DNA from: Elusimicrobiota bacterium
GTDB lineage: Bacteria > Elusimicrobiota > Elusimicrobia > F11
Direction: 5' to 3'
DNA length: 64,000 bases
Assembly (NCBI GenBank): GCA_044221725.1
Contig: JBGAON010000002.1
Location: 403,000-466,999 of the forward strand
Shown piece after piece: positions 27,218 to 61,791 of this stretch; the stretch's first letter is position 1, and every line of letters starts with the position of its first letter. The translations under genes were made by a program, and so were the position numbers. The notes under the pieces were generated by a model. It made no database searches, was not told where the DNA came from, and worked only from the letters and a program-made list of their open reading frames with translations.

Positions 27218-28687
27218 ATGAATTCGAAAACAGCGAATGGTATCCACACCTGCGTGTCAACCGGTAACCCAGGGCTCGATGAAGTTCTTTCCGGAGGTTT
27301 CACTCCGAACCGTCTTTATTTGATTGAAGGAGATCCCGGCTCCGGAAAAACAACCCTCGGCTTACAGTATTTGCTGGAAGGCGTTAAGAATGGGGAAACC
27401 GTCATGTATGTGACGCTTTCCGAAACAACCGAAGAATTGGCGGCGGTCGCCGCCTCTCACGGTTGGTCGCTTGACGGAATCCACGTGGTTGAACTTGTGC
27501 CGTCTGAGCGCGCGTTAGAAAGCGATGCGCAATATACGATGTTTCATCCTTCCGAAGTGGAATTGAACGAAACAACAAAGGCCGTGTTGGACAAGGTCGA
27601 GGAACACAAACCAACCCGAATCGTTTTTGATTCGCTTTCAGAAATGCGGTTGCTCGCGCAAAATCAATTGCGGTATCGGCGCCAAATCCTTGCGTTGAAA
27701 CAGTTTTTTGTTGGACGAAATTGCACGGTTGTGTTGTTGGATGACCGCACGGCCGAACAATCCGATATACAGCTCCAAAGTATCGCGCACGGTGTTTTAA
27801 CGCTCGAGCAATTATCTCCGAACTATGGCGCCGAACGTCGCCGACTGCGCGTCATGAAGTTTCGCGGAAAGAGATACCGCGGCGGATACCATGACTTCGT
27901 CATTCGGCAGGGGGGAATTGATATTTTCCCGAGGTTGATAGCGGCGGAGCATCACAGCGCGTTTTCGCAACAGCTTCTTTTGAGCGGCAATGCCGGGTTG
28001 GATGCGCTTATGGGCGGTGGAATCAATCCGGGAACAAGCACGCTGTTAATCGGACCCGCCGGTGCGGGCAAATCTTCTCTTGGTATGCAATATGTGGTTG
28101 CGGCGGCGAACCGAGGACAGAAGTCTTGCGTATTTATCTTTGATGAGAGCATCAACACGTATTTAACGCGAAGCGCCGGCCTTGGAATGGATTTGGCTCC
28201 ATATATTGAAAACAAGCAAGTGACTCTCCAACAGGTTGATCCGGCCGAATTGTCGCCGGGAGAATTCGCCGGAGCCGTCCGTGCCGCGGTCGCCAAACAC
28301 GGTCCTCGCGTGATTGTTATTGACAGTCTCAATGGATATTTAAACTCTATGCCCGAAGAAGACTTTCTCACCGTGCAAATGCACGAGCTGCTGACGTATC
28401 TTGGCCAGATCGGAGTCAACACATTCCTTGTGGTGGCCCAAGCAGGCTTGATTGGTGCGATGTCCGCACCTATTGATGTGAGTTATCTCGCTGATAACGT
28501 GATTCTCTTCCGATATTTCGAGTCAAAAGGGGCCATCCGTCAGGCCATTTCGGTGATTAAAAAACGCTCGGGTAACCACGAGCGAACGATTCGCGAGCTC
28601 AGTATGAGCGGTGCCGGTATTAAAATTGGTGAACCTCTTTTACGGTTTTCAGGAATTCTGCAGGGGACGCCAACATTCGATGAATAG
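27218..28687 (+). CDS. kaiC: KaiC-family double RecA-like ATPase
   Basis: 489 aa with two RecA-like halves: Walker [10 protein letters not shown] and GPAGAGKSS, acidic pair in SETTEEL (CI catalytic EE position), Walker B-like hydrophobic-D/E blocks in each half. Confidence 0.85.
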
Positions 28688-35223: not shown

Positions 35224-36318
35224 ATGAACGAATTCAAGACAGACCGGTTTAATTTTTATTTTGTTGGCGCGCTGCTGCTGATCGGCTTCAATGTTTGGCA
35301 CACCACCACGAGGCCCCTGTGGCCGGGCTCGATCCGTAAGTCCTTAACGATTGGAGAGCCGGTTATCGCGCTCGCCAAGACCGTGGATCCAAAAATCGAA
35401 ATTTCTCGGCCCTATGATGGTCAGTTTGTGTACGCAATCTCTCTTGACCCGTTGATTTTAACCCGCGCTTCTATTTCTTCGATCGATTTGCCCACCTATC
35501 GTTACCGCCGCATGCTGTTGCCGTTTCTCGCGTGGGTTTTGAGCCTCGGTCATTTGCCGATAATTCCGTATTTCCTTTTTGTTCTAAACCTGGCCGCTTG
35601 GATTGCGATTGGTATGGCGGGGGCACAAATCGCAAAAATTGAAAAGATAAACGCGGCGGTGGTCGTTCTTGGGCTCGTAACGATTGCAGGTCTCAGCTTT
35701 TCGGCTGTGCGCTCGCTCACGGAGCCGATGTCGGTGGCGTTTACGTTGTGGGCTTGTGTCTGGTACCGGAAAAACAATTTTTTACCGATGATCGTGTGCT
35801 TCGCATTGGCCATGCTCGCGCGCGAGCGCGCCGTCGTGGCGGCGCTCGTTGTCTGCGCCTACGGAATCTACGAACGCAAATATTCGCTCGTGAGAGGCCT
35901 CTTGATGTTTGCGGCTATTTGCGGGCCGCTCGCCTTGTGGATGCTCTACGTAAAATGGCGCATCCCGGCTGATTCGTATCCGTACGCCTCCCGAATGACA
36001 CTGCCGGGTATCGGTTTTTGGCGGGAAACGGTTTGGGCCGGAACATACAACACGACAAAAACCGAACTCGTGCGGTCGCTCAGCATCAATATTGTATTCA
36101 TCCTAATGACCGTATTTGCATCGGTTTTCTTTTGGCGTCGGCGGAATGTGTGGGGCGCTTTGGCGCTGTGCGAGTTGATTTTTTGTTCGATGTTGCAAGG
36201 CGGGCTGTGGAACAATTGGGTGGATTCCTCGCGCATGGTTTTGCCGCCGACCGCATTTTTTCTCGTTTGGCTGTTCACGATAAAGTCCGTGTCCGCCGCG
36301 CCGGGCCGATCAACATGA
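35224..36318 (+). CDS. polytopic integral membrane protein (possible GT-C-like partner)
   Basis: 364 aa, multiple TM helices; stop overlaps the next ORF start (ATGA). Confidence 0.5.
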   Translation: MNEFKTDRFNFYFVGALLLIGFNVWHTTTRPLWPGSIRKSLTIGEPVIALAKTVDPKIEISRPYDGQFVYAISLDPLILTRASISSIDLPTYRYRRMLLPFLAWVLSLGHLPIIPYFLFVLNLAAWIAIGMAGAQIAKIEKINAAVVVLGLVTIAGLSFSAVRSLTEPMSVAFTLWACVWYRKNNFLPMIVCFALAMLARERAVVAALVVCAYGIYERKYSLVRGLLMFAAICGPLALWMLYVKWRIPADSYPYASRMTLPGIGFWRETVWAGTYNTTKTELVRSLSINIVFILMTVFASVFFWRRRNVWGALALCELIFCSMLQGGLWNNWVDSSRMVLPPTAFFLVWLFTIKSVSAAPGRST

Positions 36319-37616
36319 AATCGCTGACTTTCACTCAAAAATTCACCACGGCCCTGTTGTTTGCGTTTGCGCTGGCGATCCTCACGATTCACATCAACAA
36401 CGACTGGGAGTTGGTTCATGAAGAAGATAGCGCGATTTACACCACTATCGCGTTAAGTCATAACTTTCTCGGTTTTCGACGGACGAACTTTCACGATGTG
36501 TTTTATGATCGCCATGAGAAGAACGCGTACTTTTATGCGCATCATCCACCATTGGCTTCGATCTTATTGGCGCTCGTGTTCCGAGCGGTCGGATACGACG
36601 CGCCGTGGGTGGTGCGATCGCTGCCAATTTCGTTTCAGCTGATTAACTTGGCGCTGCTGCTCTTTTTCCTCAGTCGAAAGTTTGACTACGACGATGTTTT
36701 GTTTGCGGGATTTGTTTGGGCCGCGATCCCTATGGGCGCCTTTTTTGGGCGTGTTTTTACGCAAACGGTCTTGGCGTCGGTTCCAATTCTCGTGCAGCTG
36801 ATTTCTTATTACTTCTTCAAAACGACAAACCAGAGACGTTGGAAAATTGTTTTTTACGTCATGATCGTTTTTGGTGCGCTGATCGATTGGAGTCCGCTGT
36901 TTTTCTCGCTTACGTATTTGCTTGTTGAAAGCTGGGAATGGTGGAAGACGCGAGCGAACACGGGCTTTGTGGTCGGCATCTTTTCTGTCATGGCGTTCAT
37001 AACGGTGTTTAATATCGTCCACATGTATTCCTGCGGTCACAATCTGCGGCTTTTTGAACAAGCGCTGCACGGCAACGCGCACAATCAGAAATTCACATTC
37101 GTTCAGTTCATCGGCACAGTGTTGGATTTTTATCGTCGCTATTTTACGCACGTGGGATTTGCGGCGAGCATTTTGGTCGGCATCGCACTAGCGCGGCGTT
37201 CAAGCGTCCTTCATGAAAAACTGTTCGGAACGATCAACGATCCGATGTTCGAGCGCGTCATGGGCATTGCGTTCGTGGGCGCCATGATCCACATCTGCAT
37301 GACGCCGTCGTACTCGAAGGTCCATCATTATTGGTATTTTTATTTTATGCCGTACGCCGTGCTTTCGATTTTTGTGCTTTTCTTGTTTTTAAAGGACCGT
37401 TTTTATTTGAAGCCGGCACGGCTGGTGTCGGCGGTGGTGTTTAGCGAATTCCTAATTATGTCGGTTTATATGCTCAATATTCGGCACACGCGTTGTTTGA
37501 AATACTCGACGCAGTGGACGAAAGAGGTGCGGGAAAAGTATTTGATGCCGTGTTCCATCGCTCATCTGCCATACAATAAAGAGAATCTTCAAAAAATAAA
37601 TACCGCGAATACGTAG
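36315..37616 (+). CDS. GT-C-fold-like membrane glycosyltransferase family protein (PMT/ArnT-like)
   Basis: Start placed at internal ATG 36315 (MKSLTF...); the longer 36018 ORF overlaps the previous gene. First loop HEEDSAIY then YAHHPPLASILLALVF resembles the acidic-motif plus HPPL block of GT39/GT83 enzymes. Confidence 0.5.
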   Translation: MKSLTFTQKFTTALLFAFALAILTIHINNDWELVHEEDSAIYTTIALSHNFLGFRRTNFHDVFYDRHEKNAYFYAHHPPLASILLALVFRAVGYDAPWVVRSLPISFQLINLALLLFFLSRKFDYDDVLFAGFVWAAIPMGAFFGRVFTQTVLASVPILVQLISYYFFKTTNQRRWKIVFYVMIVFGALIDWSPLFFSLTYLLVESWEWWKTRANTGFVVGIFSVMAFITVFNIVHMYSCGHNLRLFEQALHGNAHNQKFTFVQFIGTVLDFYRRYFTHVGFAASILVGIALARRSSVLHEKLFGTINDPMFERVMGIAFVGAMIHICMTPSYSKVHHYWYFYFMPYAVLSIFVLFLFLKDRFYLKPARLVSAVVFSEFLIMSVYMLNIRHTRCLKYSTQWTKEVREKYLMPCSIAHLPYNKENLQKINTANT

Positions 37617-38508: not shown

Positions 38509-39411
38509 ATGGACATTCTCGATCAGCTCGAACAACAAAGTGTTTATATTCTTCGCGAGGCGTTCCGACACTTCGAACGCCTCTGTATGCTTTGGTCCAT
38601 TGGCAAGGATTCCACGGTGCTTCTTTGGCTTGCACGCAAGGCATTTTTCGGACATGTTCCGTTTCCGTTGGTTCACATCGACACCAGCTACAAAATTCCC
38701 GAAATGATCCAATATCGCGACAAGCTCGCGATGGAATACAAACTCACAATGGTTGTGGGCCAAAATGAGGAAATTCTTAAAGCCGGTAAAACCTTCCCAT
38801 TGACACAACACCTGCCCGAAGGTCACCCCGATAAAATCAGTCGACTCCAATGTTGCGGGTTCTTAAAAAAAGATGCGCTGACGAACACGTTGAATGGTTC
38901 GTGGCCGCGAAAGCGTCTCAATCTCAAAAGCGGTAAATACGAATTGGATCCGGACAAACAACCGTACCACGGTGTTATCGTGGGCGCGCGTGCCGATGAA
39001 GAAGGAAGCCGGTCAAAGGAGCGTTATTTTTCACCGCGCGACAAAAACAATCTATGGGATATTGGCGAACAGCCGCCCGAATTTTGGAATCAGTTTAAAA
39101 CCGATTTCGCACCCGGAACGCACGTACGAATTCACCCGCTGTTGGATTGGACCGAGCTCCACATCTGGGAATACATCAAACGCGAAAATATTCCGACGGT
39201 GTCCTTGTATTACGACCAGGGCAATGGCACGCGTTACCGCAGCTTGGGTTGCGCGCCGTGCCAGGCTCCCATTGAGAGCAAAGCAAAGAATGTGGACGAC
39301 ATCATCGCCGAACTTAAAAGCGGAAAACTGAAAAATATCGCCGAGCGTTCGGGTCGGCTGCAAGATGGCAAGCACGGGTTGGAAGAGCTGCGCCGCGAAG
39401 GGTACATGTGA
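38509..39411 (+). CDS. cysD: sulfate adenylyltransferase subunit 2
   Basis: 300 aa; PP-loop SIGKDS; CysD-like throughout. Confidence 0.9.
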
Positions 39412-41192
39412 AGGCCCAAATGAACATCGTGATCGTTGGGCACGTCGACCACGGAAAAAGCACGGTGGTTGGGCGGCTTTTGGCCGATACCGGTTCGTTG
39501 CCGGAAGGAAAGCTCGAAGCCGTCCGGAAAGAATGCGAGCGAACCGGAAAACCGTTTGAGTACGCGTTCTTGTTGGACGCTCTGTCCGACGAGCAAGACC
39601 AAGGTATCACAATCGACACGGCGCGTTCGTTTTTCAAAACGGCGAAACGCGATTACATCATCATTGATGCGCCGGGTCACATTGAATTCCTAAAGAACAT
39701 GATCTCCGGTGCCGCGCGCGCCGAGGCCGCTGCGCTCATCATTGACGCGAAGGAAGGCGTTCGGGAAAACAGTCGTCGCCACGGTTATATTCTTTCAATG
39801 CTCGGTATCAAACAGGTTGTCGTCTGCGTGAACAAAATGGATCTCGTGGACCGGAGCGAGGCGCACTTTAAGAACATTGAAAAAGAGTACCGTGAGTTCC
39901 TGGCGTCCATTGGTGCGGTGAGCCCGAAACATTTTATTCCGGTGTCAGCGGTCAACGGCGAAAACCTGGCGCAGCGCAGCACGAAAATGTCGTGGTACAA
40001 AGGCCCCACATTGCTGGAATCGTTGGACGAGTTTGAAAAAGCGCCGCCAAAAAGTGATCGCGCTTTGCGCATGCCGGTGCAAGCGGTTTACAAATTTGTG
40101 AGCGAAGGCGATGACCGTCGCATTATCGCGGGCCGTATCGAATCGGGACGCGCCAAGGTCGGAGACAAAGTGGTGTTCCTGCCCTCCAACAAAAGCAGCG
40201 TTATTCGAACAATCGAGGGTTTTAATACGTCGCCGCGAAAGGAAATTGAAGCAGGTTGGTCGACGGGTTTTACGTTGAATGAAGAAATATATATCACGCG
40301 TGGCGAAATCATGAGCCTCGAGTCCAGTGCGCCCCACGTCAGCACGCGCTTTCGCACCAATTTGATTTGGCTCGGCAAAAAACCGTTTGCACCAAAAAAA
40401 GACTACAAACTGAAAATTCATACCCAGGCCGTGCCGGTTCAGATCAGCAAGATCAAAAAGGTGATCGACGCTTCCGAGGCGGGCAGCGCGTTGGACAAAA
40501 ACTTTGTCGGTCGCCACGACGTGGCCGATGTTGTTCTCGAAACCCGACAGCCGATTGCGTTTGACACGATTTCGGAAGCGGAATCGACGGGCCGCTTTGT
40601 TATTGTGGACGGCTACGATATTGCGGGCGGTGGGATTATCACGGCGCCTGAGAAAGATGAGCAAGACGAATTCCGTGCCGAAGCGCGTCGGCGAGACTTT
40701 CATTGGATTCGAGGTGCCGTTTCACGATCCGCACGTGCCGAAAAGTTTGGCCATCAAGCGGCACTTGTGATGTTTGTGGGGAAAGCGGGTGTCGGCAAAC
40801 ATCGATTTGCGGGGGCGGTTGAGAAATCATTGTTCGATCGAGGCATGTCATCTTATCTGTTGGACGGCACAAACGTGTTGCTTGGTGTGGACGCTGATTT
40901 GGTTTGGGTCGAATCAACGCAACACGAATTGGTTCGCCGTTTTGCCGAAGTTGTGCATATTCTTCTGGACGCGGGGCACCTGGTTGTTTCGACGACCAAT
41001 TCCATTGGGCTTGCTGACCTCGCGGCCGTTCAAGCGCTTATTCCTGATTTCCCAGTGATTGCGGTGGAAATCGATCCGTCCGGATCAACGATTCAACAGA
41101 GCGATTTGCGTTTAAGTGGGAAGGAACAGGAAACAGACGTGGTAAAAAAAGTGTCCGACATTCTCGTTAAGCGCCAGATTGTCAATTCTTAA
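39408..41192 (+). CDS. cysN: sulfate adenylyltransferase subunit 1 (GTPase) fused to a degenerate APS-kinase-like C-terminal domain
   Basis: [18 protein letters not shown] GTPase motifs. The last ~165 aa are collinear with CysC but with an altered P-loop (GKAGVGKHR) and DGT in place of DGD. Start overlaps the cysD stop. Confidence 0.85.
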
Positions 41193-43453
41193 ATTTTCTT
41201 CCGAAAAAATTTCATCAACCATCCTTTAAATCCACCCGGGTGCAGCGTGCAAAATACGGTGGGCTCTGTGCCGGTGACAAAGATTTCTTCTTTCTGATTG
41301 GGACAGCCGCTGCGTGCCAAAAGCCCGGACGCCGGATCAATCTTTACTGTTGTGACGCCGGCCGGTTTTTCAAAATCGGCCGGTACGCGGTCGCCGTAAT
41401 AATTCTTCATGAACGATACCCATACGGGCAACGCATTTTTTGTACCGGACAAATGCGCAGCGCGAGCTTCATCGTCACCGACCCAAACGCCAGCAAGAAG
41501 GTCCGCTGTGTAACCAATAAACCACGCGTCGCGACCCGCGTTTGTTGTTCCGGTTTTGCCCGCGCTTGTACCGCTCCAGCCCAGCTCTTTCGCGGTTTTC
41601 GCGGTTCCGTCGGTGACGGTTGTTTGCAACAGCGACGTCACGAGGTAGGAGAGGGCTGGTTCCAATACTTGCTGCCGTTCGCTTGTGTTTCTTTCCAGCA
41701 CATTGTTTTCATAGTCAGCGACCGCGGTCACGAGATAAGGATTCACGTGGAATCCGCCGTTGGCAAACGCCGCGTACGCCGACGTCAGTTCAAATGGAGT
41801 TACTTCGGACGCGCCCAGCGCAAGTGCGAGACTGTTTTCGAGAGGAGACTCAATGCCAACGCGTGTTGCAAATTTGACGACGTTGTGCGTGCCGAGCTTT
41901 TGAGCGAGGTCCAGCGATGCGCCGTTCATCGAATGGGCCAACGCATCCCGCAAAGTCACGGCTCCTCGGTAAACGCCGTCAAAATTCCGAGGGGCCCAAA
42001 CTTTTTTTCCTGTGCGATAAGCGCGCGGTTGATCTTGCAGAAGTGACGCTGGAGTGAAACCGTTTTCGAGAGCCGCCCCGTAAAGAAAAGGTTTAAACGC
42101 ACTGCCCGGTTGGCGGCGAGCTTGCGTGGCGCGATTAAACTGACTTTCTTTAAAATTTTTTCCACCGACCAACGCGGCAACCGCACCCGTGCGCGGATCG
42201 AGCACGACGACGGCCGCTTGATTCTTTTGCGTTTTGACGGCGGTCTGGGCCAGGCGCTGCGCGCGCGGATCCAGGGTCGAATAAATCTTTAGCCCATAGC
42301 GAAACAACACATCCTCACTAAAGTGAGGCACAAGTTGACGGATGACTTCGGCCACGAAGTAATCGTTGTTGTTCGCGGTTTCCGGCCCGGGCGTTGTTTT
42401 TCGATTTCGAACGATAACCGGCAATGAGCTGGCTTTTACGTATTCGGGCTCGGTGAGAAAGGTTTCATCCATCATGACGCGCAACACGGTGTCGCGGCGT
42501 TCGCGCGCCGCGCGAATATTTTGAAACGGGTTGTAGCGGTAGGGCGACCGGATAATTCCAGCCAGGAGAGCCGATTCGGACACGTCCAGGTTTTTGAGTG
42601 GTTTGCCAAAATAATAATCGGCGGCCGCTTTTACGCCGGCGATGCTCACGGCGCCATCCTGCCCCATATAAATCTGATTGAGGTACAGAGTGAGAATTCG
42701 TTCTTTCGAAAATCGGAAGTTTAGGTACACGGCAAAAGCGGCTTCCATAAGTTTTCTTTGCAACGTGCGTTCTTGGGTGAGGAAAAAATTCTTTGCCAGC
42801 TGCTGCGTGATCGTGCTTCCGCCTTGCAAATTCTTTCGGTGGCGCAGGTTGTACCACGCGGCACGCAAAATGGCGCGGAAGTCGAGCCCGTTGTGCTTAT
42901 AGAAACGCCGGTCTTCGACCGCCACGACGGCATCCAAAAGCGATTGGGGAAAATCGGTCCACGCGGCCGGTTCGCGACGCACTTTTTGCGGACCGGAGAG
43001 TTCCGCGACGACCTCCGGTTCGAGTGACACCTGGTCCAACACGTTCCCGTTTCCATCGGTCAGCGTCCAGTGGTTGTCGGATTCTCGGGTGAGTGAAATG
43101 ACGATGGGTGTTTGCACGAGCGACGGTGTTTGGAAGCCGCGCAACGCGATTTTGATCGAAGAGGAATTCACGTCAAACGAACCCAGAGCGAGCGGCGTGG
43201 CGTTCGTCGCCCGATAATCGAGTTCTTTCAAACGCTCCAACAGCTCCGAGGTTGACACGCTGTCGTGGTTGCGAATCGTCCAGGCCGATGAATAAATTTT
43301 CGTTGGGAAACGATCGCCCAGTCCGCCCGGAACCAATTTCGCGAGCCGGTATTCGGAATACAATACGACACTCACCATGCCAGTGGTGGCAAGCATTAAC
43401 AGAACGAGAGCGCCAATAACAAACTTGTTTCGGAAAACTTTTTTTCGGAACAA
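41189..43453 (-). CDS. mrcA: class A penicillin-binding protein (PBP1A-type)
   Basis: 754 aa; N-terminal TM anchor, GT51 motifs ([17 protein letters not shown]; [12 protein letters not shown]), transpeptidase SAFKP, SMN and KTGT motifs. Confidence 0.9.
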
Positions 43454-43556: not shown

Positions 43557-43955
43557 ATGAGACGCAGTTTTATTACGCATCCGCGTTACCAAATTGGTTT
43601 TGTGTTGGCGTTTGTGCGCGGTGTGTTGGTCGCCATGGCAATTCCAGGATTCATGCTTTTCTTTACGCTTTATCTCCTCGCACAGGATCCATCGCTAACC
43701 TTTTATCAAAAGGCCATTTTACTCGAGGGTAGCAATCGCATGGTGATGATTTTTTTCAAGTGTGCGACTGTGACGGCCGGCGTTTTTGCATTGATCGCTG
43801 CCTATCTGTCCTACAAGTACGCGGGACCGATTCGACGGATCGAAGACTGGCTCGTGCAATATGTTACGCACGCATTTGCGCATCCGTTAACGCTGCGACC
43901 GCGGGATGAGTTGTCGACGGTAGCGAAGTTGTTAAACCGAATTCTAGAGAGATAG
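43557..43955 (+). CDS. small two-TM membrane protein with HAMP-like cytoplasmic motif (paralogue 1)
   Basis: 132 aa; two hydrophobic helices, then GPIRRIEDWL...RDELSTVAKLLNRIL, resembling HAMP AS1/AS2 helices; no output domain. Confidence 0.5.
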   Translation: MRRSFITHPRYQIGFVLAFVRGVLVAMAIPGFMLFFTLYLLAQDPSLTFYQKAILLEGSNRMVMIFFKCATVTAGVFALIAAYLSYKYAGPIRRIEDWLVQYVTHAFAHPLTLRPRDELSTVAKLLNRILER

Positions 43956-43959
43956 AATC

Positions 43960-44391
43960 ATGCAATCACGTTTAATTTATCATCCGCTGCTCAAACACCA
44001 ACGAAGCTTCTCAATATTTGTCCTCTATTTCGTCGCGGTAACAGCGACCGTTGGTATTCTCGTGCGTCATTTGTTATCCGCAGTGAATCTGGCCGGGATT
44101 AGCTTGAGTCTTTTCCCGACAGATAATAATCCGGTGCTCGTCATTCTGTTATCGCCTTACTTTCATCTTGCGCTCGCGCTTTTTTCGATTGCCGTTGGCG
44201 CTGGTATAACGTCAACTTATATCGTCGGGCACATCCGCCGAATTGAGGATTGGTTACGCGATTGGGACGCGGGTATGGAAGTAAAACCGTTTAAGCAGCG
44301 CGCTGGCGATGTGGCCTATGAAAATATCATCGTGATGATGAATCAGCTGTACGAGAAGTCCAGAGAAAAGAAACGACGGCCGAAGAAGTAA
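43960..44391 (+). CDS. small two-TM membrane protein with HAMP-like cytoplasmic motif (paralogue 2)
   Basis: 143 aa; same architecture and the shared block GHIRRIEDWL; Lys/Arg-rich C-terminus; 4 nt after paralogue 1. Confidence 0.5.
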   Translation: MQSRLIYHPLLKHQRSFSIFVLYFVAVTATVGILVRHLLSAVNLAGISLSLFPTDNNPVLVILLSPYFHLALALFSIAVGAGITSTYIVGHIRRIEDWLRDWDAGMEVKPFKQRAGDVAYENIIVMMNQLYEKSREKKRRPKK

Positions 44392-58305: not shown

Positions 58306-61300
58306 ATGCAACTTGAGCAATACCGGCGGATTCTCTCCGACCGCATCTTCGTGTTCGATGGTGCCATGGGCACCAACCTGCAGGCTTTCAACCCGACAAT
58401 CGATGACTATGAGGGAAAGGAAGGCTGCACAGAAGTTCTATGTTTCTCGAGACCGCAATGGTTGAAACAAATCCACGCGGACTTTTTCAAAGCGGGTTGC
58501 GACATCGTTGAAACCAATTCGTTCGGCGCGAACCGCATCGTTCTCGGCGAATATGGACTGGAATCGCAAGTTCTCGAGTACAACCGCGAAGCCGCGAAAA
58601 TTGCTCGCGAGGTCGCCCAACAATTCTCTACGCCGGACCACCCGCGTTTTGTTGCCGGTTCTATGGGCCCCGGTACAAAACTGCCGTCCCTGGGTCACAC
58701 GAATTTTGACACACTTCGGTTTAACTATGCCGAGCAGGCCGAAGGGTTGATCGAGGGCGGTGTCGATCTTCTTTTGATTGAAACCTCCCAAGATCTTCTT
58801 CAAGTGAAAGCCGCTATCAACGGTTGTTTGGACGCAATGAGGAAGACGAAAGTTCGCATTCCATTGAATGTTCAGGTGACAATTGAATCGACCGGTACGA
58901 TGCTCCTTGGCAGCGATATGGCCACCGCCATTTCTGTCATCGAATGTTTTCCCGTGGATACCATAGGCCTCAATTGCGCCACGGGCCCGCGCGAGATGAG
59001 CGAACATGTGCGCACGCTCGGCCAACTTACCAATCGGTACATTTCTGTTTTGCCGAACGCCGGTTTGCCCGAGAACGTCGGTGGAAAAGCGGTTTATAAG
59101 TTAACTCCAGCGGATTTGGCGGCTCACCTGGTCGAGTTTATTCATCAGCATGGTGTGAATGTGGTCGGGGGGTGTTGCGGAACGACGCCCGATCATTTGG
59201 CCGCTGTCGTTCAAGCGGTTTCTAAGATCACGCCGAAGCAGCGCACACCAAAACGCGTGGCCACCGTTGCAAGTTTGTACATGACCACACCCATTCGCCA
59301 AGAACCGGCACCGCTCATTATTGGTGAGCGCACGAACGCGAACGGTTCAAAACTTTTTCGTGAACTCCTTTTGGCCAACGATTACGATTCGATGGTGAAC
59401 GTGGCCAAGGAACAAGAGGCGGAAGGGGCGCATGTGCTGGACGTTTGCACCGCCTATGTTGGACGCAACGAAATCAAAGACATGGATGAGACAATCAAGC
59501 GGTTTGTGCTTCAAGCGCGCGTTCCGCTCATGATTGATTCCACCGAAGCACCGGTTATTGAATCGGCCCTCAAACTGTACGGTGGTAAGTCCATAATTAA
59601 TTCGATCAATCTTGAAGATGGCGAAGAAAGAATGGCCAAGATTTGTCCGATGCTGACCACCTACGGTGCGGCCGTCGTTGCTCTCACAATTGATGAGGCA
59701 GGAATGGCGAAGACCAAACAAAAGAAGGTAGAGATTGCAAAACGCATTTACGATCTCGCCGTCAAGAAATACGGGGTGCCGGGCGAGAATATTGTTTTTG
59801 ACACGCTTACCTTTACGCTCGGTAGCGGAGAAGAAGAATTCCGCAAAGCCGGCATTGAAACGATCGAAGCTATTCGCGAGATCAAACGCGAATTGCCCGA
59901 CGTGCACACCACGCTGGGAGTGAGCAATATTTCTTTTGGACTGCAGTCAGCGTCACGCGCGGTTCTCAATAGTGTGTTTTTGCATTACGCTATTGAGGCG
60001 GGTCTCGACTCGGCCATCGTTAACGCAAAAAAAATTATGCCGCTGTTCCAGATCGATGAAAAAGGTCGCGAGCTCGCGAGACAACTTGTTTTTGATGAAC
60101 GAAAATTTGGAGCCGACGGCATCTGCATTTACGATCCGCTTAAAGAATTTATGGCGTATTACGCCGGCGCGAAGGCGGATGCTGGGCCGACAGCAAAAGA
60201 GGAACCCAAATCGGTCGAAGAGAATTTGAAGCAGCGCATCATTAACGGCAACAAGCAAAACATCGAAAAAGTTTTAGAAACAGCACTCGAAAAATATTCA
60301 GCGCTCGATGTCATTAACACAATTTTGCTCGAAGGAATGCGGGTGGTGGGAGAATTGTTTGGCGCCGGCCAAATTCAGTTGCCGTTTGTGTTGCAGTCGG
60401 CCGAGACCATGAAAGCGGCGGTCCGTTATCTTGAACCGCACATTCCGAAAGTCGCTGGTGGCACATCGAAAGGGAAGCTTGTTATTGCGACCGTGAAAGG
60501 AGATGTCCACGACATCGGGAAGAATCTCGTGGACATTATTCTTTCAAACAACGGTTACACCGTGATCAATTTGGGGATCAAGCAGCCGATCGATGCTATT
60601 TTAAAAGCGGCCGAAGAACACAAACCGCACGCCATCGGCTTGTCGGGCCTTCTCGTTAAGTCCACCGCGGTCATGAAAGAGAATCTCGAGGAAATGAACA
60701 ACCGCAATATCACTTACGATGTAATTCTCGGCGGAGCCGCGCTCACGCGCAAATTTGTGGAAGTCGATTTGCGCGACATCTATAAAGGAAAGGTTTTTTA
60801 TGCGAACGACGCGTTCGCCGGGTTGCGCCTCATGGATGAACTCGTCGGTGCGGTGGCCGATAAAAAATTAACGACAATCCGAAAAAGGGAAGAAATCCTG
60901 GCAGCGACTTCAAAGGAATCGTCGTCGTTAAAATCGAAGCCAGTCACCAGCACGGGTGTTCTTATTCGATCAAAGGTTCCACCCAGTTTGTCGATTCCGA
61001 AGCCGCCTTTCTGGGGGGCGCGGGTTGTGCGTGGGATTGATTTGAAAGAAGTGTTTGCATTTATGAACGAAACGGCGTTGCTAAAGGTACGCTGGGGTTT
61101 TAAACGCGTGCGGGAAAATAGTCTCGAAGAATACAATCGAATGATGGAACAGACCGTGTATCCGCTTTACGAAAAATGGAAACAATACGTGTTGCGCGAG
61201 GGAATTTTTCATCCCCAAGTGGCGTACGGTTATTTTCCGTGTCAATCGGACGGGGATTCGCTCGTGATTTTTAATGAGGATTTGAAAACCGAACGACAGC

Positions 61301-61791
61301 GATACGTGTTCCCGCGGCAACACAAGGATCCGTATTTGTGCATCTCGGACTTCTTTCGGCCGCTCGGGTCGCCGGAGATGGACGTCATTGGGATGATGAT
61401 TGTCACCATCGGTTCCGACGCGACACCACGTATTCAGGAAATTTACAAGAGCAACCAATACACGGACTATTTGTATCTGCATGGGCTTAGTGTGGAAACC
61501 GCCGAAGCGCTCGCGGAGTATTGGCACAAACGAATTCGTTTGGAGTTGGGGATAGCGAACCAGGATTCTCCGACCCCACGCGACTTGTTCCAACAGAAAT
61601 ACCAAGGATCTCGCTACAGTTTTGGTTATCCCGCCTGTCCAAATCTTGAGGATCAAGTAAAAATATTTGATTTGCTTGAGCCCAATCGCATCGGCGTTGA
61701 GTTGTCCGAAGAATTTCAGCTTCATCCGGAACAATCAACGTCCGCCATCATCGTGCACCATCCCGACGCCAAGTATTTTTCCGTGGACTAA
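58306..61791 (+). CDS. metH: cobalamin-dependent methionine synthase
   Basis: 1161 aa; homocysteine-binding and pterin-binding barrels, B12-binding DxHxxG (DVHDIGKN), C-terminal AdoMet reactivation domain. Confidence 0.9.
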   Translation: MQLEQYRRILSDRIFVFDGAMGTNLQAFNPTIDDYEGKEGCTEVLCFSRPQWLKQIHADFFKAGCDIVETNSFGANRIVLGEYGLESQVLEYNREAAKIAREVAQQFSTPDHPRFVAGSMGPGTKLPSLGHTNFDTLRFNYAEQAEGLIEGGVDLLLIETSQDLLQVKAAINGCLDAMRKTKVRIPLNVQVTIESTGTMLLGSDMATAISVIECFPVDTIGLNCATGPREMSEHVRTLGQLTNRYISVLPNAGLPENVGGKAVYKLTPADLAAHLVEFIHQHGVNVVGGCCGTTPDHLAAVVQAVSKITPKQRTPKRVATVASLYMTTPIRQEPAPLIIGERTNANGSKLFRELLLANDYDSMVNVAKEQEAEGAHVLDVCTAYVGRNEIKDMDETIKRFVLQARVPLMIDSTEAPVIESALKLYGGKSIINSINLEDGEERMAKICPMLTTYGAAVVALTIDEAGMAKTKQKKVEIAKRIYDLAVKKYGVPGENIVFDTLTFTLGSGEEEFRKAGIETIEAIREIKRELPDVHTTLGVSNISFGLQSASRAVLNSVFLHYAIEAGLDSAIVNAKKIMPLFQIDEKGRELARQLVFDERKFGADGICIYDPLKEFMAYYAGAKADAGPTAKEEPKSVEENLKQRIINGNKQNIEKVLETALEKYSALDVINTILLEGMRVVGELFGAGQIQLPFVLQSAETMKAAVRYLEPHIPKVAGGTSKGKLVIATVKGDVHDIGKNLVDIILSNNGYTVINLGIKQPIDAILKAAEEHKPHAIGLSGLLVKSTAVMKENLEEMNNRNITYDVILGGAALTRKFVEVDLRDIYKGKVFYANDAFAGLRLMDELVGAVADKKLTTIRKREEILAATSKESSSLKSKPVTSTGVLIRSKVPPSLSIPKPPFWGARVVRGIDLKEVFAFMNETALLKVRWGFKRVRENSLEEYNRMMEQTVYPLYEKWKQYVLREGIFHPQVAYGYFPCQSDGDSLVIFNEDLKTERQRYVFPRQHKDPYLCISDFFRPLGSPEMDVIGMMIVTIGSDATPRIQEIYKSNQYTDYLYLHGLSVETAEALAEYWHKRIRLELGIANQDSPTPRDLFQQKYQGSRYSFGYPACPNLEDQVKIFDLLEPNRIGVELSEEFQLHPEQSTSAIIVHHPDAKYFSVD

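Follow-up and report, generated by a model that had tools for sequence, protein, structure and literature searches.

The window considered here, meaning the whole 64,000-nucleotide (64-kb) stretch of Elusimicrobiota DNA that was analysed, contains the adjacent genes cysD and cysN, which encode the two subunits of a GTP-coupled ATP sulfurylase. The present analysis concerns the C-terminal domain of the CysN subunit, a relative of adenosine 5'-phosphosulfate (APS) kinase (CysC). In the remainder of CysN, motifs G1, G3 and G4 of the GTPase are all intact (GHVDHGKS, residue 11; DAPGH, residue 87; NKMD, residue 142), the protein passes the NCBI curated CysN model TIGR02034 (355.7 bits against a cutoff of 336.1) and it is matched by E. 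coli CysN with 34% identity over 432 amino acids (E = 6e-82). Pfam divides it into GTP_EFTU (residues 4-208), domain 2 (238-288), GTP-eEF1A_C (314-412) and APS_kinase (451-554). The CysN part also scores 331.9 bits on PRK12317, the model of archaeal and eukaryotic EF-1alpha, which is near the score on the CysN model itself; judged from its sequence, the window CysN may belong to a deep-branching CysN lineage. The identity of CysD is given by Pfam PAPS_reduct (E = 2.5e-36), by the NCBIfam CysD model NF003587 (322.6 bits, cutoff 195) and by P. syringae CysD, 1ZUN_A (E = 1.3e-49).

The two genes are tightly spaced. The stop codon of cysD shares bases with the GTG start codon of cysN (ATGTGA, within window positions 39405-39422), and an NCBI record of the protein (P0001, 590 amino acids) begins cysN at an ATG four codons (12 bases) downstream of this GTG. 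At its other end, cysN overlaps by its last 4 bases (41189-41192) the stop of a convergent PBP1A gene (41189..43453, minus strand), so that no space for a terminator is left between them.

In a first-pass annotation of this DNA, it had been proposed that the last ~165 residues of CysN (40695..41192, corresponding to residues 430-594) are collinear with APS kinase, and this was borne out by both sequence and structure searches. In full-length CysN, the Pfam APS_kinase match reaches 45.4 bits against a cutoff of 21.1, and it covers only profile positions 2-106 of 152. When the stretch 40695..41189 was searched alone, it matched Pfam APS_kinase (E = 1.2e-12), the adenylyl-sulfate kinase model PRK03846 (E = 1e-23) and, in the PDB, the CysC of Mycobacterium tuberculosis (4RFV, E = 4.4e-12) and Arabidopsis APK1 (E = 1.2e-11). 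On the strength of these Pfam, NCBI-model and PDB matches, the likeness to APS kinase is a matter of true homology and not of chance.

AlphaFold2 models were obtained with a predicted local distance difference test (pLDDT) score of 78 for full-length CysN and of 85 for the domain alone, the latter with a predicted template modelling score of 0.83. Both models show the same order of elements: b1, P-loop, a1, b2, a long loop, a3, b3, a4, b4, a short connection, b5 and a C-terminal helix. As modelled, the domain is an APS-kinase core minus the two lid helices. The top Foldseek matches of the domain model in the PDB were all APS kinases, led by 6B8V (E = 9e-11, template modelling (TM) score 0.80) and followed by 1M7H, 2OFW and 4RFV; the APS-kinase matches span TM scores of 0.7-0.8, and several of the top-ranked chains are notably short (164 and 143 residues). 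The AlphaFold2 models, Foldseek and the Pfam gathering score all assign the domain the APS-kinase type of alpha/beta P-loop kinase fold. Residues 425-434, which lie between domain III of CysN and the kinase-like domain, have pLDDT values below 50, which suggests that the tether between the two domains is flexible.

The residues on which catalysis depends in APS kinases have been described for M. tuberculosis CysC. According to Poyraz et al. 2015 (PMC4373884), Ser457 ligates Mg and Asp480 is the proposed base; Arg483 contacts the phosphate and the sulfate of APS, Arg497 contacts its sulfate and adenine, and Phe492 stacks on its adenine. The canonical lid is mobile, comprises ~41 residues with two helices and corresponds to residues 552-581 in M. 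tuberculosis CysC, where Arg559 stacks on ATP, Lys562 acts in the transition state and Phe576 also belongs to the lid. The same paper reports that the exchange Cys556Ser, which merely loosens the lid, abolishes activity (PMC4373884).

The alignment to characterised kinases suggested in the first-pass annotation was carried out with E. coli CysC (taken from NC_000913; MAFFT) and M. tuberculosis CysC (HMMER). It upheld the three alterations that had been read from the sequence, namely His after the P-loop Lys, DGT for DGD and a shortened lid, and it revealed further losses. The P-loop reads GKAGVGKHR where E. coli CysC has GLSGSGKST; the Walker Gly and Lys (M. tuberculosis Lys456) are retained, the Mg-ligand Ser (Ser457) is replaced by His and the next Ser (Ser458) by Arg. 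For comparison, 50 sequences were aligned from among the 120 best database relatives, which are 73-82% identical overall and share the altered motifs. Position 465, that of the Mg ligand, is His in 43 of the 50, Gln in 5, Pro in 1 and Ser in 1. In LDGTN, the first Asp (Asp478) is retained and the proposed base Asp480 has become Thr; this position (488) is Thr in 31 sequences, Ser in 14, Asn in 4 and Gly in 1, and never Asp. The counterpart of Arg483 is Leu (NVR to NVL), that of Phe492 is Trp (W500) and that of Arg497 is Gln, with the following Asn changed to Leu (DRKEN to TQHEL), while FISP has become TNSI. The lid block has 11 residues against 41 in E. coli CysC and in complete canonical representatives, every lid residue is absent, KGLY and FTGID included, and no helix is predicted between b4 (550-555) and b5 (567-569) in the AlphaFold2 models.

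Every catalytic or binding residue listed above for M. tuberculosis CysC (PMC4373884) is thus substituted or deleted, which strongly supports the catalytic impairment proposed earlier. The protein fails the apsK model TIGR00455 (52.5 bits, cutoff 138.7) as well as the model of bifunctional CysNC, NF004035 (461.2 bits against 715, the match ending at profile position 576 of 632), and, of the five sequence features by which an APS kinase is defined, the domain misses four (Walker Ser/Thr, LDGD, two Arg, lid). Because of the failed curated models and the missing features, the protein was classed neither as CysNC nor as CysC, but as a CysN that bears a pseudo-APS-kinase domain. From the established enzymology of the missing residues and lid, it is close to certain that the APS-kinase activity of the domain has been lost. 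The features of the locus are collected in Table 1.

Table 1 Features of the cysD-cysN locus, with positions in the window
Feature	Position	Strand	Basis or detail
cysD, ATP sulfurylase catalytic subunit, 300 aa	38509..39411	+	PP-loop SIGKDST at 38596..38616
CysD Cys115-Cys116	38851..38856	+	aligned to the CC pair of APS reductase
CysD Cys248-x-x-Cys251 (CAPC)	39250..39261	+	aligned to the CxxC of APS reductase
cysN, one unbroken open reading frame, 594 aa	39408..41192	+	open reading frame listing
CysN proper: GTPase (residues 1-210) and beta-barrel domains II and III (211-414)	39408..40649	+	TIGR02034, G motifs
Linker and N-terminal arm of the APS-kinase-like domain, residues 415-450, starting EKDEQ	40650..40757	+	
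Pseudo-APS-kinase core, residues 451-556: strands b1-b4, helices a1, a3 and a4	40758..41075	+	
Altered P-loop GKAGVGKHR, residues 458-466	40779..40805	+	alignment
LDGTN replacing LDGDN, residues 485-489	40860..40874	+	alignment
Helix of residues 505-521, counterpart of the M. tuberculosis CysC Cys514 dimer helix	40920..40970	+	
Lid remnant, ~10-11 residues	41076..41105	+	alignment, models
Strand b5, C-terminal helix and stop codon, residues 567-594	41106..41192	+	

Loss of catalysis has not been accompanied by loss of conservation. In the alignment of 50 sequences, identity to the window protein is 0.87 for the GTPase, 0.73 for domain II and 0.75 for domain III; the kinase-like core has a mean identity of 0.765 to the 49 homologues, rising to 0.84 in segment 505-531 and falling to 0.42 in the C-terminal tail. 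Invariant residues include G458, G463, K464, L485, G487, N489, L491, G493, D495 and D497, together with Q505, E507, L508, R510, R511, S528, T529, T530, N531 and G534. The N-terminal arm retains the CysC pattern W-x4-V-x4-R-x5-GH in the alignment to E. coli CysC, with W433, G436, V438, R443 and H449 invariant in 50 homologues. The loop LDGxNxLLGVDxDLVW (485-500), which lines what was once the active site, varies hardly or not at all in the close sub-family, and the best-conserved segments of the domain are the helix 505-521 and residues 531-546, including residues that are expected to face the solvent. Pairwise codon comparison with seven relatives gave, for the core, proportions of nonsynonymous differences (pN) of 0.09-0.20 against saturated proportions of synonymous differences (pS) of 0.69-0.84, values which are equal to or below those of domains II and III; only pN and pS are given since the rate of synonymous substitution (dS) is saturated. 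A core as conserved as domains II and III, with pN far below pS, argues that the domain is under strong purifying selection and is not a decaying relic.

The distribution of the domain was studied by scanning one genome per species for the patterns EL[VI]RRF[AG]EV and [AS]Y[ML]LDGxN[VI]L. This gave 125 confirmed relatives, of which 80 loci were kept. All 80 come from metagenome-assembled genomes (MAGs) of Elusimicrobiota, Myxococcota/Polyangia and Planctomycetota, with a few labelled Proteobacteria, Pseudomonadota or Deltaproteobacteria; the nearest relatives of the window protein are those of Elusimicrobiota, the best scanned locus being 77% identical. Of the 80 loci, 78 gave a CysN GTPase match and 66 a CysD homologue, in a sample that was retrieved with the domain as query and in which relatives having lost the domain are therefore invisible. 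None of them has a canonical CysC within 10 kb, and searches by tblastn for CysQ, sulfotransferase and TauE around them were negative. APS reductase lies near cysDN in two loci (L013 and L008) and a CysI-like gene is present in two of the 80. Across these loci, no conserved neighbourhood of the close family was seen, and the flanks of one member (P0020) consist of unrelated genes.

The wider family was explored with HMMER, using the domain as query against 1.84 billion cluster representatives, and 2146 proteins were returned at E <= 1e-3, 12 of them at E <= 1e-30. From the best 150 representatives, 153 domain segments were scored together with two reference rows; they split sharply into 73 canonical and 82 non-canonical segments, the latter including the window sequence and some fragments. 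Canonical segments carry GLSGxGKST, LDGDN and the Arg/Phe/Arg/Asn set, and the complete ones also FISP and a 41-residue lid with KGLY and FTGI; in most non-canonical segments the lid has 9-13 residues. Of the lid-less non-canonical domains, 56 are complete; Walker GK is present in 25 of these and the catalytic Asp in three. This wider lid-less clade extends to MAGs of Gemmatimonadales, Anaerolineaceae and Bdellovibrionota, where full-length members are annotated as "GTP-binding protein" (Bdellovibrionota) or "adenylyl-sulfate kinase" (Anaerolineaceae). Searches for cultured carriers, made with a wider-clade domain and with CysD, yielded metagenomic or MAG proteins only. Two very long proteins, P0122 (2736 amino acids) and P0148 (1822 amino acids), ranked near the top of the HMMER results but were rejected as relatives, being tandem-repeat artefacts with 26 and 15 weak stretches, respectively.

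The strongest argument for a function of the degenerate domain comes from its coexistence with genuine CysC, which indicates that it has a job of its own. In P0140 (832 amino acids) and P0277 (782 amino acids), a complete CysN, a degenerate domain and a fully canonical CysC follow one another in one chain. In one Gemmatimonadales MAG (L084, 1789-9109), a lid-less cysN is clustered with a gene for a CysQ-like phosphatase, cysD and a stand-alone cysC that is canonical throughout (GLSGSGKST, DGD, KGLY, FTGID). Where PAPS (3'-phosphoadenosine 5'-phosphosulfate) is needed, a second, intact kinase is supplied, and the degenerate copy is neither repaired nor discarded.

Further details of these systems may be added. 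P0210 is likewise a triple fusion of CysN, degenerate kinase domain and canonical CysC. The degenerate copy in P0140 and P0210 is of a second type, in which part of the lid and the APS-site residues Arg/Phe/Arg remain, whereas its motifs read GLPGCGK[ED]E and LDAAT or LDAKA; by analogy with the fungal allosteric domain, this second type might bind APS or PAPS without catalysis. The L084 cluster adjoins polysaccharide-export genes (Poly_export and a Wzz-family gene with a CbiA/ParA-type ATPase), and in a further locus (L085, 2853-9889) a lid-less CysN is found with a sulfotransferase, glycosyltransferases and TauE; the gene content of the two clusters suggests synthesis of a sulfated polysaccharide. 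In both L084 and L085, cysN is broken into several open reading frames, for which a frameshift, an assembly error or a pseudogene is possible.

The partner subunit is also unusual. Cysteines 115, 116, 248 and 251 of CysD are invariant in all 63 CysD partners compared, the cysteine motifs, LGCxxC among them, occur in 119 of 120 database homologues, and the four cysteines align exactly with the CC and CxxC ligands of the [4Fe-4S] cluster of APS reductase (ECCGIRK in that of L013). They are absent from the CysD of E. coli (GCWPL) and of P. syringae (GCYPL). The alignment suggests that the CysD of the window may bind an iron-sulfur (Fe-S) cluster which, if present, would be a new property of an ATP sulfurylase. 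The HMMER match of CysD falls into two to three pieces because insertions differ: the window CysD has an insertion of its own at residues ~92-147 (38780-38950) and is without, at residues ~236-241 (~39210-39235), the insertion of ~25-36 residues that immediately precedes RFRTLGC in the CysD of E. coli and P. syringae. Gemmatimonadales CysD bears the same four cysteines, so that the four-Cys CysD and the lid-less CysN travel together, and their sequences may mark a separate enzyme lineage. A bolder proposal, to be taken as tentative, is that these cysD-cysN pairs form a distinct, widespread and undescribed lineage in which a CysD that binds a [4Fe-4S] cluster through the four cysteines it shares with APS reductase is joined by a lid-less pseudo-kinase that organises the complex or hands on APS. 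If this were true, sulfate activation would be Fe-S-dependent and possibly redox-sensitive, and the enzyme would stand in evolution between the sulfonucleotide reductases and classical CysDN.

The reading that is preferred, with moderate confidence, is that the domain is a pseudo-kinase maintained by purifying selection as a non-catalytic module of CysD-CysN, most likely for assembly or docking. The C-terminal ~165 residues are descended from an APS kinase, of which the five-stranded alpha/beta core has been kept and the ability to phosphorylate APS almost certainly lost. It is known from Poyraz et al. that APS kinases are obligate dimers, the interface of M. tuberculosis CysC burying 3300 A2 mostly through two helices, one of which carries Cys514 (PMC4373884). 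The domain of CysN could pair through the corresponding two helices, either with a second copy, which would link two CysD-CysN heterodimers to each other, or, in proteins and genomes that have a genuine CysC domain, with that domain; within a triple fusion, an intramolecular pseudo-dimer might arise from the dead and the live domain. The enzyme as a whole would then yield APS only, and in the lineage of the window this APS probably passes straight to an APS reductase of the Fe-S type. Assembly or docking is favoured because the counterparts of the dimer-interface helices are the best-conserved parts of the domain, the N-terminal arm is kept, the tether appears flexible and yeast Met3 offers a parallel. 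As regards the APS route, L013 has, 0.7 kb downstream of cysN, a gene for a CysH with CC...CxxC...ECGLH that matches the APS reductase of P. aeruginosa, 2GOY (E = 1.7e-61), and L008 carries the same gene; an Fe-S-type APS reductase beside cysN is in keeping with direct reduction of APS, for which no kinase is needed. Taken together, homology and fold, the missing catalytic parts, conservation, wide distribution and coexistence with real CysC are observed, and the loss of kinase activity, dimerisation or docking and the fate of APS are deduced.

Several considerations weigh against this reading. Dimerisation is deduced solely from the conservation of helices that also pack the core of the domain. 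The invariant Walker Gly and Lys and the loop 485-500 are unexplained by a pure scaffold, and they make a retained ligand (an anion or a nucleotide) or a partner contact at the former active site possible. The APS-reductase neighbour occurs in only two of 80 loci, and a cysC may lie beyond the 64-kb window, in which case the organism could make PAPS.

The conservation of the former active site speaks for an allosteric sensor, in which the dead domain would bind PAPS, APS, ATP or ADP at the vestigial P-loop and modulate CysD-CysN. G458, G463 and K464 are invariant and His or Gln at 465 nearly so, the loop LDGxNxLLGVDxDLVW is near-invariant with the aromatic W500 at the position of the APS-stacking Phe, and fungal ATP sulfurylase provides a precedent (PMC3734648). 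Such a sensor is nonetheless unlikely, since the lid, the Arg pair, the Phe and the Asn that persist in the fungal domain are all lost here, and the regions flanking the 80 close loci showed no gene that makes or uses PAPS. Moreover, with Walker GK in only 25 of the 56 lid-less representatives, nucleotide binding cannot be the function of the whole clade. A PAPS sensor of the fungal type in particular was rejected after residue comparison with the 1I2D sequence; of the earlier suggestion that the domain may be impaired and regulatory, the impairment is strongly supported and regulation in the manner of a PAPS sensor only poorly. A closer neighbour of the preferred assembly or docking module is a docking and channelling adaptor, by which the pseudo-kinase would recruit a stand-alone or fused CysC (as a pseudo-dimer) or APS reductase so that APS is handed on directly. 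APS is unstable and strongly product-inhibitory. The adaptor finds favour in the triple fusions, where the degenerate domain directly precedes a real CysC, in the separate cysC of the L084 operon, in the APS reductases adjoining cysDN in L013 and L008, and in the obligate dimerisation of APS kinases through helices that are conserved here. It is rated improbable all the same, given that 78 of the 80 close-family loci have neither CysC nor CysH nearby; it departs from the preferred module in the identity of the partner only, and the interaction is again deduced.

That the domain has no function, being the decaying remnant of a CysNC kinase that was lost on a switch to direct APS reduction, would agree with the loss of the catalytic residues and the lid, with the identity of only 0.42 in the C-terminal tail and with the drift of P-loop sequences across the wider clade. 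Such a neutral relic is very hard to reconcile with a core that over three phyla is conserved like the essential domains of CysN and in which pS greatly exceeds pN, and with a compact and well-folded AlphaFold2 model; the domain adjoins the CysN GTPase in 78 of 80 loci (in the domain-queried sample, where losses are invisible), and lineages that need a kinase add a new one rather than reuse the degenerate copy. It is still harder to believe that the domain remains an APS kinase by means of unconventional residues. The Pfam APS_kinase gathering threshold is indeed passed, JGI and some NCBI records name the protein "bifunctional CysN/CysC" or "adenylyl-sulfate kinase", and the domain still has its Walker Lys along with the first Asp of LDG. 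Against this, the counterpart of Asp480 is never Asp in the 50 homologues, the Mg-ligand Ser is His, and the lid has been deleted with the counterparts of Lys562 and Arg559, when in M. tuberculosis CysC the exchange Cys556Ser alone suffices to abolish activity (PMC4373884). A canonical CysC in the same chain or operon elsewhere also argues against it.

The rest of the window offers little to connect with sulfate activation. As the first-pass annotation had stated for cysC and cysH, no separate gene was seen: tblastn with E. coli CysC, CysH, CysI and CysJ found nothing in the 64 kb beyond the domain itself (CysC, E = 3.7e-17). When some 40 genes of the window were run through Pfam, the neighbours it identified were of the housekeeping kind only, among them GGDEF, PBP1A, a T2SSE (PilT-type) ATPase, KaiC, a CLC channel, tRNA synthetases and MetH. 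The KaiC homologue (27218-28687) has a double domain, and the full-length cobalamin-dependent MetH (58306-61791) is the sole other gene of sulfur amino acid metabolism seen in the window. Two membrane open reading frames at 43557-43955 and 43960-44391 (132 and 143 amino acids, no Pfam match) have IRRIEDWL in common after the last hydrophobic segment and look like tandem paralogues; they are followed by a multi-pass membrane protein of 515 amino acids, also without a Pfam match. Two large hydrophobic reading frames at 35224-36318 and 36018-37616, again without Pfam matches and with the look of multi-pass membrane proteins, overlap by 300 bases in different frames, and translation of the second probably begins at a more downstream codon.

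The main immediate consequence of these results is a systematic annotation error. Members of the family are named "bifunctional enzyme CysN/CysC" by JGI and "adenylyl-sulfate kinase" or "GTP-binding protein" by NCBI, and a published survey told NodQ apart from CysN simply by whether PF01583 was there (PMC1780047). Taken at face value, such names ascribe to MAGs of Elusimicrobiota, Myxococcota, Planctomycetota and other groups a synthesis of PAPS of which a CysN with a lid-less domain is, to judge from its missing residues, almost certainly incapable; metabolic reconstructions that rely on them would pick the PAPS route instead of direct APS reduction. More than 8000 sequence clusters match the full-length protein at E <= 1e-20, and the C-terminal domain was examined in 120 of them. 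In addition, the family represents a bacterial enzyme domain that has been turned into a pseudo-enzyme and kept for another purpose, a parallel to the ATP sulfurylases of fungi and yeast that has arisen on CysN, an unrelated scaffold. Triple fusions of CysN with a dead and a live kinase are a natural experiment on the role of the dead copy.

Non-catalytic APS-kinase-like domains are already known from the Sat-type sulfurylases of fungi and yeast (PMC3734648); what appears to be new is the occurrence of one on CysN. The full-text literature searched, in which few subscription journals are covered, yielded no account of a CysN whose kinase domain is dead and lid-less, nor of a CysD with an Fe-S cluster. 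The nearest system in architecture is CysNC/NodQ (M. tuberculosis Rv1286, Sinorhizobium NodQ), which also consists of a GTPase, two beta-barrels and a C-terminal APS-kinase fold, with its gene directly after cysD and with a collinear linker and N-terminal arm. Unlike these proteins, the window domain lacks the Ser that ligates Mg, the catalytic Asp, the two Arg that bind APS and a lid of 30 residues. E. coli shares with the window the two-subunit GTP-coupled ATP sulfurylase with cysD upstream, but its CysN stops after domain III, its CysC is separate and canonical, and its pathway runs via PAPS.

Dead domains are also known from other enzymes of sulfate activation. The ATP sulfurylase of P. 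chrysogenum (1I2D/1M8P) likewise has a non-catalytic C-terminal APS-kinase fold in which the P-loop Ser is replaced (GYMNSGKDA). Still present in this domain (1I2D 396-573) are the lid, with KRGIY and FTGVD, and the two Arg, the Phe and the Asn by which APS/PAPS is held, and it has lost only the P-loop Ser and the first Asp; it sits on an unrelated Sat-type sulfurylase and binds PAPS, whereas the window domain is carried by the EF-1alpha-like GTPase CysN. 1I2D was not among the matches of the window domain in the PDB sequence search at E <= 0.01, and 1M8P had rank 50 in Foldseek. Given that the fungal domain has retained the lid and the APS/PAPS-binding residues that are lost here, it is an unlikely model for the domain of the window. 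The two-domain APS kinase of Thiobacillus denitrificans (3CR8), in which one dead fused domain serves as structure (Gay et al. 2009, as cited in PMC3734648), is the mirror case, with a dead sulfurylase-like domain, an active kinase and no GTPase. The C-terminal domain of S. cerevisiae Met3 is, like that of the window, a degenerate APS-kinase-like domain and, going by the title of Lalor et al., one of a non-catalytic oligomerisation type. Met3 is a Sat-type enzyme that forms a hexamer, and the likeness is one of description, sequence aside; by this analogy, oligomerisation of the Met3 type would be the functional model favoured for the pseudo-kinase domain of the window CysN.

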